Sequence record: OQ378934.1
Source: Escherichia phage LH2
Strand: one strand, 5' to 3'
Length of the DNA: 64,000 nt
The notes under the pieces: model-generated
Seen by the model: the letters and a program-made list of their open reading frames with translations, nothing else
Database searches by the model: none
What the model was told of the DNA's origin: nothing
In this document: positions 12,416-40,426 of the stretch, piece after piece
Layout: the number at the start of each line of letters is the position of its first letter
Position numbering within the stretch: position 1 is the stretch's first letter
Translations under genes and position numbers: made by a program

Positions 12416-12772
12416 ATGTATAGTTCTGAATTTCCATATTTAAAAATGGAAAAAATTTCATACGATTTTATAGATGAAAAGGTTTATTACAGTTTTCATG
12501 AGCCGCGTTTTAACAGTGAAGTCGGTTTTATTGTAGTAAAAGACAATTTCATTTTAAAGATATATTCGGCATTAAAGGATTTTCACTACGAAAATATTAA
12601 CCTAAAATTTGATAAAGAAAACGTTCGTAATTGCGCAGTAACAATTACAGGAAATAAAGGTACATGCGTTATGCTATCTGATGAAATTAATGATTTGCTA
12701 AATGATGCCGAAAAGGTTGTTATTCCATCGATTGATGACCAAATTTTTAATGCTTTTATGAATAGAGGTTAA
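12416..12772 (+). CDS. hypothetical protein (T4 61.2 position)
   Basis: 118 aa ORF. Confidence 0.55.
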   Translation: MYSSEFPYLKMEKISYDFIDEKVYYSFHEPRFNSEVGFIVVKDNFILKIYSALKDFHYENINLKFDKENVRNCAVTITGNKGTCVMLSDEINDLLNDAEKVVIPSIDDQIFNAFMNRG

Positions 12773-12940: not shown

Positions 12941-13969
12941 ATGTCATCAATACCTTGGATTGATAATGAGTTTGCATACCGTGCATTAGCTCATTTACCT
13001 AAATTCACACAAGTAAATAATAGTTCAACTTTTAAATTGCGGTTTAGATGTCCTGTTTGTGGAGATTCAAAAACCGACCAAAATAAAGCCCGTGGATGGT
13101 ATTATGGTGATAATAATGAAGGAAATATTCATTGTTATAACTGTAACTATCATGCACCAATCGGAATATATCTAAAGGAGTTTGAACCTGATTTATATCG
13201 TGAGTATATCTTTGAAATAAGAAAAGAAAAAGGTAAAAGTCGTCCAGTAGAAAAACCTAAAGAACTTCCTAAACAACCTGAGAAGAAAATAATTAAATCT
13301 CTTCCGTCATGTGTTAGATTAGATAAACTGGCGGAAGGCCATCCAATTATAAAATATGTAAAAGCTCGCTGTATTCCAAAGGATAAATGGAAATATCTTT
13401 GGTTTACAACCGAATGGCCTAAATTAGTTAATAGCATAGCACCAGGAACATATAAAAAGGAAATACCTGAGCCTCGTCTTGTTATTCCAATTTATAATGC
13501 TAATGGAAAAGCTGAGTCTTTTCAAGGACGCGCATTAAAGAAAGATGCTCCTCAAAAATATATTACCATCAAAGCTTATCCTGAGGCAACAAAAATCTAT
13601 GGTGTTGAACGGGTTAAAGATGGTGATGTATATGTTCTAGAAGGACCTATAGATTCACTTTTTATTGAAAATGGTATAGCTATTACAGGTGGTCAATTAG
13701 ACCTAGAAATTGTTCCATTTAAAGATAGACGTGTATGGGTTTTAGATAATGAACCTCGTCATCCTGACACTATTAAACGAATGACTAAATTAGTTGATGC
13801 AGGAGAAAGGGTTATGTTTTGGGACAAATCTCCCTGGAAATCAAAAGATGTTAATGATATGATTAGAAAGGAAGGTGCAACCCCTGAGCAAATTATGGAA
13901 TATATGAAAAATAATATTGCGCAGGGGTTGATGGCTAAAATGCGGCTATCTAAATATGCTAAGATTTAA
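12941..13969 (+). CDS. 61: DNA primase gp61
   Basis: 342 aa; zinc ribbon CPVCGDS...CYNC at N-terminus; recognised as T4 gp61. Confidence 0.93.
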   Translation: MSSIPWIDNEFAYRALAHLPKFTQVNNSSTFKLRFRCPVCGDSKTDQNKARGWYYGDNNEGNIHCYNCNYHAPIGIYLKEFEPDLYREYIFEIRKEKGKSRPVEKPKELPKQPEKKIIKSLPSCVRLDKLAEGHPIIKYVKARCIPKDKWKYLWFTTEWPKLVNSIAPGTYKKEIPEPRLVIPIYNANGKAESFQGRALKKDAPQKYITIKAYPEATKIYGVERVKDGDVYVLEGPIDSLFIENGIAITGGQLDLEIVPFKDRRVWVLDNEPRHPDTIKRMTKLVDAGERVMFWDKSPWKSKDVNDMIRKEGATPEQIMEYMKNNIAQGLMAKMRLSKYAKI

Positions 13970-14166
13970 ATTAACCCAACTAAAGCAAATGCTAAATCTA
14001 CGAATGTATCAAGAGTAATTACTGGAATACTAACGCCATGAGCAATAGCAACTGGCGATAAAACAAAATTCCAAAGTAAAATTCCTATCATAGCAGAAAT
14101 AGTAAAAGCTATACGTTTTTTATTACCTTTGATGGCATTAACAAGTGCCATTAATTTTTGTACCAT
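13966..14166 (-). CDS. small membrane protein (66 aa), antisense to early genes
   Basis: Strong SD aggagg 4 nt upstream of ATG on minus strand; two hydrophobic segments; 3' end overlaps gene 61 stop convergently. Confidence 0.5.
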   Translation of the reverse strand: MVQKLMALVNAIKGNKKRIAFTISAMIGILLWNFVLSPVAIAHGVSIPVITLDTFVDLAFALVGLI

Positions 14167-14236
14167 ATGTCCTCCTTATTGCTTTATATATTTATTGTAT
14201 AATTAATCTACTAACCAATGAATTGAAAGGATATAT

Positions 14237-14887
14237 GTGAATTACCAAAAAATTTACTCGGCTTTAATTACAAAAGCTAAATGCCGGCATCTTGGCGGAT
14301 ATAAAGAACGCCATCATATAATTCCTAGATGTATAGGAGGAGCAGATGACAAAAACAATCTTGTTGAGTTAACTGCGCGTGAGCATTTTATAGCTCATAG
14401 ATTATTAACTAAAATATATCCAGATGTGAGAGGATTGCATTATGCTGTAAATTTAATGCGATATAATAAAGGTGTTAAATTAACAAGTAGATTAATAGAA
14501 ACTCTTAAAATCCAAAACTCTGTTCTTTTCTCGGGTGAAAATAATCCTAGATATGGCAAGCCGTCATGGATTAAAGGCAAAAAGACCCCAGAAGAAACTA
14601 AAGCCAAAATGCGTCTAGCTCATAAAGGTAAAATTATATCCGATGAAGCCAAGGCTAATATGAGTAAAGCCCGAAAAGGAAGATTTAGCGGTAAAAATTC
14701 GCCTCGATACGGTTTACCAAATCCTAGGCGAGGAGAAATATGGAATAGTTATGATGCGCTTTATGAATTATGGGTTTATAATAATAGACCTAAGCGCACA
14801 AAATTTAATAAAATAGCTGTCAAGGCAGGTTATCCTAATATCTGCTATAGACATATGATAGAAAACTTCATAAGAAAGGAAAAATAA
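14237..14887 (+). CDS. HNH homing endonuclease (mob-like)
   Basis: GTG start with aaagga RBS; HNH core ERHHIIPRCIGGADDKNNLVELTAREH; NUMOD-like repeats; paralogue of the 27738 HNH ORF. Confidence 0.75.
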   Translation: MNYQKIYSALITKAKCRHLGGYKERHHIIPRCIGGADDKNNLVELTAREHFIAHRLLTKIYPDVRGLHYAVNLMRYNKGVKLTSRLIETLKIQNSVLFSGENNPRYGKPSWIKGKKTPEETKAKMRLAHKGKIISDEAKANMSKARKGRFSGKNSPRYGLPNPRRGEIWNSYDALYELWVYNNRPKRTKFNKIAVKAGYPNICYRHMIENFIRKEK

Positions 14888-17689: not shown

Positions 17690-17872
17690 ATGGATTTATT
17701 TGAGATGTTAGAAGATAATCATTCTACGAATATCCAGAATGATTCTAGTGATTATAAGAAAGAGTACCGTATAGTATTACAGAATTATGGAATTGAAGCC
17801 CCAGATGCTCTTCTAGAAGAACTAGCTTCATACCATCTTGACCCTCCGCCCTGGGCTCCCTGGGCAAAATAA
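17690..17872 (+). CDS. hypothetical small protein
   Basis: 60 aa ORF. Confidence 0.35.
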   Translation: MDLFEMLEDNHSTNIQNDSSDYKKEYRIVLQNYGIEAPDALLEELASYHLDPPPWAPWAK

Positions 17873-17939
17873 TTCAAAAAGTTGTTTACTTTCCTTTCTA
17901 ACGATGATATGATAGCTTCTGAAGTATATGGAGGCTATC

Positions 17940-39769: not shown

Positions 39770-40426
39770 TTATTTAGCCCGTCCTAATATTCTGGCCGCC
39801 TGAGAACATATTGATTCAAGGCGGTCATTACTTATATGATCATTTCTATACCAGTACATGGTTATTGTTCCAGCATAGATGTTATCCAAATTAAAATATG
39901 GACAACTGTACATGTAATTTATTTCGGGAGTAGGCTTTTTAGTTGGTAAAAAAGCAAATTTTGAATTGGAATAATAATGACGTCCATTTAAATGGACTGT
40001 ATATTCATCCATAGTTTTATCAACAGGATATCCTCCAAGTGATTTTTCACTTATTGTTGAAGGTAATTTTCCTTCATATGCTATAATATCAACAAAATAG
40101 TTTAAGTTTTTAGGGCGGAAAGAATACACCGCACTAAAGTCTGCCTCAGATGATATATGAACTATCTGGAGTTGTTCCAGGGCGACAGATTCAAAGCGTG
40201 CATTTCTTTCCTTTTCAATAATTTCACTGTATGTTTCATACTTTGATTGCTTATAGTACTCAAAGAAACTATCTCCCCTATACCAAACAATCGCCATTAT
40301 AAACAAAAGAATTACGACAGCTACCCGGGAAGCAAGAACTTTCCCGGTAGCGTTATCTTTGAACAAGCGATCTAGAACACCCAACAGAATATCAGAGGGC
40401 GAAAATGATATTCTAGGTGCTGCCAT
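39770..40426 (-). CDS. t: holin T
   Basis: 218 aa; N-terminal TM segment plus large periplasmic domain; recognised as T4 holin. Confidence 0.9.
   Translation of the reverse strand: MAAPRISFSPSDILLGVLDRLFKDNATGKVLASRVAVVILLFIMAIVWYRGDSFFEYYKQSKYETYSEIIEKERNARFESVALEQLQIVHISSEADFSAVYSFRPKNLNYFVDIIAYEGKLPSTISEKSLGGYPVDKTMDEYTVHLNGRHYYSNSKFAFLPTKKPTPEINYMYSCPYFNLDNIYAGTITMYWYRNDHISNDRLESICSQAARILGRAK

Follow-up and report, generated by a model that had tools for sequence, protein, structure and literature searches.

The family of small proteins catalogued as PHROG 2024 is the closest described system to the element considered here. Its members were annotated first as RB69ORF029w and also as RB32 ORF030w and VR7ORF033w, each a 'hypothetical protein', and the family is already catalogued in this way in hundreds of T4-like genomes; its existence is not new. 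A literature search yielded no paper that mentions RB69ORF029w, ORF030w, VR7ORF033w or phrog_2024, and nothing relevant was found in the literature on T4 ribosome profiling, small proteins and unannotated open reading frames (ORFs). The present analysis concerns a 66-amino-acid (aa) ORF on the minus strand of Escherichia phage LH2 (sequence record OQ378934.1). It lies within a stretch of 64,000 nucleotides (nt) of this Tequatrovirus (T4-like) genome, referred to below as the window, in whose numbering all positions are given. The ORF is an ordinary member of the family, equal to the annotated members in length and in position beside the primase gene (gene 61), and nothing was found that sets it apart from them.

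Judged by sequence comparison, the ORF is a genuine gene of T4-like phages, kept under purifying selection in 10 genera and preceded by a strong Shine-Dalgarno (SD) sequence. The overall reading proposed here, held with moderate confidence, is that of an accessory gene of one T4-like subclade which is independent of the HNH homing endonuclease gene beside it, is expressed late, and encodes an N-in, single-pass micro-protein that would bind a partner at the periplasmic face of the membrane.

Conservation of the ORF beside gene 61

An earlier note, made from the DNA alone, had described a 66-aa minus-strand ORF with an aggagg SD 4 nt from its ATG and a stop codon in convergent overlap with that of gene 61. 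All of this was confirmed. The plus-strand letters are CAT at 14164-14166 and TCCTCC at 14170-14175, reading AGGAGG, ACAT and ATG on the minus strand, and the translation in the ORF list, with its ATG start, is exactly the 66 aa quoted in that note. The plus-strand ORF at 12941-13969 corresponds to T4 gp61; its stop codon (TAA, 13967-13969) and that of the 66-aa ORF (TTA on the plus strand, 13966-13968) have 2 nt in common, the coding sequences (CDSs) overlapping by 4 nt. A length of 66 codons is not in itself beyond chance, as spurious ORFs of up to 95 aa occur antisense to gene 61 within the same 5 kb. Because chance ORFs of such size occur here, the case for a real gene must come from genome comparison.

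The product matched the PHROG 2024 profile with an E value of 1.9e-30 (residues 2-66 against profile positions 1-65 of 65), as did all 25 aligned relatives. A tblastn search found the ORF in 703 GenBank phage records, with a coverage of 80% or more of the protein in 690 of them. Identity to the ORF product is 88-100% in Tequatrovirus and approximately 50% in Mosigvirus and Gaprivervirus; the match is 100% in 26 GenBank phage entries, and all but one of these carry an annotation for it. Positional orthologues are present in 10 genera, namely Tequatro-, Mosig-, Gapriver-, Jiaoda-, Moon-, Gelderland-, Dhaka-, Marfa-, Kanagawa- and Carettavirus. The Jiaodavirus orthologue was recognised from a match at E = 0.9 in Klebsiella phage Boboto that was shown to be positional, and use of the Boboto sequence as the next query added Moonvirus, Gelderlandvirus, Dhakavirus, Marfavirus and Kanagawavirus; Carettavirus was added later, by a search from a distant metagenomic member. 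In each of these genera an ORF of 61-69 aa lies immediately 3' of gene 61 on the opposite strand, and in most of them the stops overlap. The same 4-nt overlap is annotated in RB69 and other Mosigvirus, Moonvirus, Gelderlandvirus, Marfavirus, Kanagawavirus (Entb_45) and Carettavirus genomes and was deduced for Dhakavirus JS10, in which the ORF is unannotated, while in Jiaodavirus and Gaprivervirus a gap or hairpin separates the ORF from gene 61. On the reading proposed here, the gene is inherited vertically beside the primase gene.

The ratio of non-synonymous to synonymous substitution rates (dN/dS) was 0.10-0.28 for diverged Tequatrovirus pairs, 0.22 for Moon and S16, 0.07 for Dhaka and Marfa, and 0.04 for a Kanagawavirus pair (20 synonymous vs 4 non-synonymous changes). 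The frame of the ORF is the sole one of the six to be free of stops. Subfamilies that are only 18-28% identical still keep W32, N33, P38, A40, G44, P48, an acidic residue at 53 and G64; among 25 sequences the first four of these are invariant, and G44, P48 and G64 are at least 90% conserved. A core motif, W-N-[FYL]-x4-P-x-A-x3-G-x3-P-x4-[DE], follows a basic N-terminus and is present in the ORF product. The sequence (A)GGAG(G) was found 4-6 nt 5' of the ATG in 15 of 15 homologues examined. The ORF stands above chance because it combines an SD, conservation across genera and a dN/dS well below 1. The claim of the earlier note that this is a real small membrane protein gene therefore holds, as the frame is conserved in related phages; conservation across T4-like genomes, which that note had listed among the checks on its claim, extends to about 700 records and 10 genera.

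In a few records the ORF is split by a frameshift, as in phage ERS-1 (L010, 1501-1701), T4_ev240 (H71) and Shinka (H101). These are probably sequencing errors and not natural knock-outs, the ERS-1 record being flagged UNVERIFIED. Gaprivervirus has a second copy, of the Dhaka/Marfa type, in the interval from VR7ORF033w to gene 61; in VR7 (L004, about 1700-1900) a frameshift interrupts this copy close to the 3' end, and in TH40 (L005, about 1700-1850) only a deletion remnant is left. The decay of this paralogue suggests that one copy is enough and that both subtypes do the same job, so as to be redundant.

In the T4 GenBank and RefSeq records (NC_000866.4 / AF158101.6) the ORF is unannotated. 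It occupies 17738-17938 on the plus strand, in the 309-bp gap between dam and gene 61 (L001, 3739-3939), and there too encodes 66 aa behind an AGGAGG SD and a GATAAATA box, with 5 of 66 residues differing from the window ORF. Other T4-strain records gave 93.9% identity by tblastn. A preprint on differential RNA sequencing of T4 (bioRxiv 10.1101/2024.04.04.588121) reports 150 phage start sites. The reference for what is probably the best-studied phage thus omits a gene under purifying selection, and gene screens and omics studies based on annotation will miss it. The unannotated T4 gene is the most useful by-product of this analysis; should nothing follow from it, the ORF would be an ordinary accessory one.

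A late-type promoter and the arrangement of the locus

The order of genes at the locus is 41, dmd, sp, 61.1, 61, the 66-aa ORF, the HNH endonuclease gene, 56 and soc. The features read in and around the ORF are collected in Table 1. At the position of T4 61.2, the window has a plus-strand ORF (12416-12772) of 118 aa, compared with 208 aa in T4, which represents a different allele or gene.

Table 1. Positions of the ORF and of the associated signals in the window
Feature	Position	Strand	Basis or remark
PHROG 2024 / RB69ORF029w-type membrane micro-protein CDS, 66 codons and stop	13966..14166	-	ORF list, profile match, conservation, dN/dS
Tail-to-tail stop overlap of the 66-aa ORF and gene 61, TTTAAA-type	13966..13969	both	Sequence and ORF list
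Intrinsic-terminator-like hairpin and T-run, gene 61 strand	14129..14159	+	Free energy (dG) -12.4, z -3.8; within ORF codons 3-13
Shine-Dalgarno AGGAGG	14170..14175	-	4 nt 5' of ATG
MotA-type middle promoter, TTGCTTTA (14179-14186) ... TATAAT (14198-14203)	14179..14203	+	Read from sequence
Predicted late transcription start, 6 nt after the box, with a 17-nt leader	14183 (near)	-	Inferred from the -13 to -6 position rule
T4 late-promoter-like box AATAAATA, positions -13 to -6	14189..14196	-	Ends 22 nt before ATG

The T4 late promoter consensus is TATAAATA at -13 to -6; an A at -13 occurs in 9 of 50 T4 late promoters, and the T at this position is poorly conserved in T4 relatives (PMC2988020, PMC1524935). 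The box upstream of the ORF is of this type, lies just 5' of a leader and SD as T4 late-gene boxes do, and has at -13 the accepted variant A. A late-promoter core, (N)ATAAATA, precedes the ATG in nearly all sequences across the 10 genera. Thirteen of 15 homologue sequences contain NATAAATA and the other two ATTAAATA, with the end of the box 12-22 nt before the ATG, and the sequence flanking the box has diverged. The form in the window, AATAAATA, is shared by FelixPlatter, Mosigvirus and Dhakavirus (21-22 nt from box end to ATG). That of T4, given above, also occurs in UTI-E4 (19-21 nt); Gaprivervirus, Jiaodavirus and PEi20 have CATAAATA (12-16 nt), Marfa and Entb_45 have TATAAATA (15-19 nt), and Moon and S16 have ATTAAATA (14-15 nt).

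The window contains 17 copies of ATAAATA, where shuffles that preserve dinucleotides contain 37.5 ± 6, a depletion of approximately 2.2-fold. In seven of the 17 cases an SD and ATG follow at 18-34 nt, the genes concerned being soc, t, 36, 34, I-TevI, a second GIY-YIG gene and the 66-aa ORF. The form AATAAATA also precedes the holin gene t (at 18 nt), and TATAAATA precedes soc, 34 and 36. No conserved sigma-70-type promoter was found upstream of the ORF. The conservation of the box, the depletion of the motif and its use before t, soc, 34 and 36 point to late transcription dependent on gp55. Transcription of T4 late genes requires gp55, gp33, gp45 and DNA replication, and the ORF is probably transcribed only late, by RNA polymerase acting with gp55, gp33 and gp45.

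The late box is back-to-back with the MotA-type middle promoter and falls inside the spacer of the latter on the other strand. The middle promoter, which is annotated here in Yersinia phage fPS-2 and was predicted in RB69 as Pm:16038, serves whichever plus-strand gene comes next. The hairpin and T-run in the 5' part of the ORF are the only terminator-like site in 13700-14500; they are conserved in Tequatrovirus only, and the site is annotated as a terminator in Yersinia phage fPS-2. On the strand of the ORF no intrinsic terminator was found 3' of it for about 4 kb. Early and middle transcripts of gene 61 would be antisense to nearly the whole ORF, as far as the terminator inside its 5' end, while late transcripts of the ORF would run on antisense into gene 61. 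Such an arrangement would sharpen late-only expression. With its late core, back-to-back middle promoter and stop overlap with the primase gene, the locus illustrates neatly how the layout of a genome could set the timing of expression.

The gene on the far side of the shared promoter region encodes a 216-aa HNH/NUMOD3 homing endonuclease (14237-14887, plus strand; phrog_655, E 1.3e-59) and stands between that region and gene 56. Only 28 of the 526 records that match window positions 13700-14400 reach into it. The others end at query position 532, about window position 14231, which is 6 nt before the HNH start and beyond both the shared promoter region and the ORF with its SD. Proteins 100% identical to the 66-aa product occur in genomes that lack the HNH gene, for example KIT06 and EcNP1. 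The far-side neighbour varies: it is the HNH gene here, dam in T4, dam with a 186-aa ORF in UTI-E4, gene 56 directly in FelixPlatter, RB69 and Shf125875, and other small ORFs elsewhere. The stretch from the intergenic region to gene 56 is no more than a site of variable insertions, and the constant partner of the ORF is gene 61, not the endonuclease.

These data bear on accounts of the locus in which the protein has little or no part. The ORF might be no gene at all, its frame open by chance and the DNA conserved because it holds the divergent promoters and the terminator of gene 61. The curated T4 annotation, which does without the ORF, would fit such an account, as would the hairpin and two promoters in or beside it and the frequency of chance ORFs of this size in the region. 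It is nevertheless highly improbable, as frame, length of 61-69 aa, SD and motif are all kept between sequences of 18-50% identity whose DNA differences approach saturation (proportion of synonymous differences, pS, 0.6-0.8), and dN/dS falls as low as 0.04. The gene 61 terminator was rejected as the cause of the conservation of the ORF, the hairpin being specific to Tequatrovirus. Alternatively, the main function could be at the level of RNA, a late convergent antisense RNA shutting down the primase gene and the early genes upstream of it while the peptide is secondary. The stop-to-stop overlap kept in most genera and the 4 kb lacking an intrinsic terminator are in its favour, and T4 is known to transcribe both strands of some sites at different times. 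An RNA of this kind would not account for purifying selection on amino acids, for residues invariant across subfamilies that have otherwise diverged, or for a strong and conserved SD. The overlap is replaced by a gap or hairpin in Jiaodavirus and Gaprivervirus, and homologues outside the T4-like phages have no primase gene near them and follow, on the same strand, a gene for Endonuclease VII. As constraint acts on the protein, an RNA-level effect is improbable as the main function, although it is plausible as a secondary one. The least credible account is that of a selfish cassette, suggested in the earlier note, in which the ORF would be the toxin, immunity or addiction partner of the HNH endonuclease. 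The two genes are adjacent and divergent in the window; the endonuclease is present in 28 of 526 related genomes, though, and the ORF in about 700 records, the homology breaks between the promoter region and the HNH start, and other phages have the ORF beside dam, gene 56 or other ORFs. The genomes that possess the HNH gene have no distinct, co-inherited allele of the ORF. Membership of a homing-endonuclease cassette was rejected on this distribution, as there is no co-inheritance and the ORF lies outside the inserted segment.

Predicted topology and possible function

AlphaFold2, run with the 25-sequence alignment, predicted helices at residues 2-12, 16-42 and 52-63 (mean predicted local distance difference test score, pLDDT, 82). 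Residues from about 19 to 42 form a clear membrane helix, with a Kyte-Doolittle value of 2.0 for the 19-mer at residues 23-41 and a summed insertion energy on the Hessa scale of about 0 kcal/mol. The last 19 residues, which include the conserved acidic residue and two Asp in all, are marginally hydrophobic (+6.2 kcal/mol, and +7 to +12 in other subfamilies), although the C-terminus itself, ...DLAFALVGLI, is hydrophobic. The amphipathic N-terminal helix is specific to the T4 subtype, the N-termini of Moon, S16 and Jiaodavirus being simply charged. Of the amphipathic N-terminus and two hydrophobic helices described in the earlier note, the first hydrophobic helix is clear and the amphipathic one is borne out for the T4 subtype; the second hydrophobic helix is only marginal.

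In all subfamilies the net charge is +1 to +7 before the helix, where the N-terminus is basic, and -2 to 0 after it, a bias that argues for an N-in topology. The product would therefore be inserted as a single-pass inner-membrane micro-protein with a basic cytoplasmic N-terminus, and the short C-terminal helix would be periplasmic, interfacial or re-entrant. Residues W32, N33, P38, A40, G44, P48 and D/E53 are all placed in the helix's outer half or in the juxtamembrane segment beyond it, and their position at the periplasmic end suggests a functional surface at the periplasmic face. There it would most likely bind a larger membrane protein, of the phage or of the host, rather than act as an enzyme or pore.

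Function searches with Pfam and NCBIfam returned only weak noise matches to unrelated families, and no holin model was matched by any of the 25 members at E values of up to 1. Fold searches found only family members in BFVD and nothing meaningful in the PDB. A profile search of 1.84 billion representative proteins returned only 21 clusters, all of small proteins with the same architecture; the most distant members, from uncultured, AT-rich, non-T4 phages, were independently confirmed as PHROG 2024 (E 1e-9 to 2e-11).

A module of these non-T4 phages was observed in four contigs (L018, 3237-5918; L022, 3279-5089; L024, 4272-5159; L047, 3729-6180). It comprises a tail tip gene, a gene for a protein of 92-98 aa with a membrane helix and coiled coil, Endonuclease VII, and the PHROG 2024 member, which overlaps the Endonuclease VII stop. 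Genes for a basic 180-aa protein and a 109-aa protein often accompany the family member; the window holds no homologue of either. The distant members are located where the tail/late region ends. Where a T4-type lysozyme was seen in these contigs it lay 0-3.5 kb from the distant member, and contig L018 has an abutting operon of the family member, the 180-aa gene, the 109-aa gene and lysozyme, in that order. The family is thereby placed in late, envelope-related neighbourhoods, a weak hint of a role in the envelope or in lysis.

A tentative guess at function is that of an accessory of the late envelope programme, acting in lysis timing, lysis inhibition or envelope protection without being the holin itself. 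A more specific and more speculative form, which is unlikely as it stands, is that this unannotated T4 late gene supplies a missing accessory of lysis, lysis inhibition or envelope protection that would act periplasmically on holin T, RI, the spanins or a host envelope protein, the two subtypes being interchangeable. T4 has few small membrane proteins that are made late, each of them important (T, RI, spanins), and the ORF could in this respect reveal a new envelope-directed function.

Several observations weigh against the combined reading of a late, single-pass accessory protein or against parts of it. The gene is missing from its place beside gene 61 in Roskildevirus, Acinetobacter phage 133, Pseudotevenvirus, Klebsiella phage Roth88 and an Aeromonas phage, in all of which same-strand genes directly follow gene 61. 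It is therefore an accessory gene of one subclade, which the T4 plan can do without. An in-silico survey of RB69 by Nolan et al. (2006) gave 31 late promoters, none of them upstream of RB69ORF029w, although the middle promoter on the other strand was predicted. At -13 the boxes of T4, Gaprivervirus and Jiaodavirus carry G or C, and the ATTAAATA of Moon and S16 deviates from the late consensus at two positions. The topology derives from simple scales and AlphaFold2, and for the T4 subtype the protein may instead be a two-helix hairpin with both termini inside. With regard to an envelope role, the non-T4 contigs are mutually related and so are not independent, their 92-98-aa coiled-coil protein near lysozyme looks more holin-like than the family member, and in T4-like phages a long distance separates the ORF from e, t, rI and the spanin genes.

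Holin, antiholin, exclusion protein and toxin are all guesses as roles for the ORF. The holin-like character suggested in the earlier note would have the protein, as a holin or pinholin, accumulate late in the inner membrane and form holes that release or activate lysozyme. The product is small and membrane-embedded, having at least one transmembrane domain by the Kyte-Doolittle scale and the AlphaFold2 helix at 16-42, and its gene has a late-type promoter that matches in form the one before the holin gene t. The homologue in phage OE5505 is named 'Holin' in UniProt, a label without visible basis; two distant members match the holin family phrog_3427 (E 5e-4 and 2e-3), two of the 25 members match phrog_11161 (E 0.012), and the L018 member is first in an operon ending with lysozyme. 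These sporadic PHROG matches are at the level expected between hydrophobic helices, however, and no curated holin family was matched. The C-terminus is hydrophobic and uncharged, where a holin has a hydrophilic, highly charged cytoplasmic tail. The ORF is not beside an endolysin gene in any T4-like genome seen, its neighbours here being gene 61 and the HNH gene or gene 56, and clustering with endolysin or spanin genes is partial and confined to the distant non-T4 contigs, in which another protein fits a holin better. The window moreover has its own holin gene t at 39770-40426 (PF11031, E 8e-118), 26 kb from the ORF, and T4 t mutants do not lyse. A holin is rather improbable. Superinfection exclusion or immunity, with the protein blocking the DNA entry of later phages at the inner membrane in the manner of T4 Imm, is likewise unlikely. 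A small inner-membrane protein with conserved residues toward the periplasm would suit it, and the ORF shares its genome block with sp and, in some relatives, with imm. Exclusion needs early expression, though, for which no conserved sigma-70 promoter was found, the sole conserved upstream element being late-type; no Imm or Sp family was matched in Pfam or PHROGs, and these phages already carry both imm and sp.

Comparison with known small membrane proteins

Among the proteins that the ORF product resembles in part, T4 Imm is also a small inner-membrane protein from the same early-region neighbourhood. It is expressed early from the other strand and has no sequence match to the ORF product, whose gene has a late-type promoter only. 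Holins, represented by the class III holin T of T4, the class II pinholin S21-68 and gp17.5 of T7, are, like the predicted product, small, late, inner-membrane phage proteins. The charge of the ORF product is N-terminal, in contrast, and it has no charged C-terminal tail, no match to their families and no adjacent endolysin gene.

The T4 antiholin RI is closer in plan, in that it begins with a membrane segment and acts through a C-terminal part in the periplasm, which binds another membrane protein. RI has 97 aa, with a releasable signal-anchor and a periplasmic domain of roughly 70 aa that binds the periplasmic domain of holin T. The corresponding tail of the ORF product has about 20 aa, and no sequence similarity to RI was detected. 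MgrB, AcrZ and MgtS are membrane micro-protein modulators of bacteria. They lack homology with the ORF product but share the mode of action proposed for it, being single-pass proteins of fewer than 70 aa with conserved residues in the helix or juxtamembrane segment that bind a larger membrane protein.

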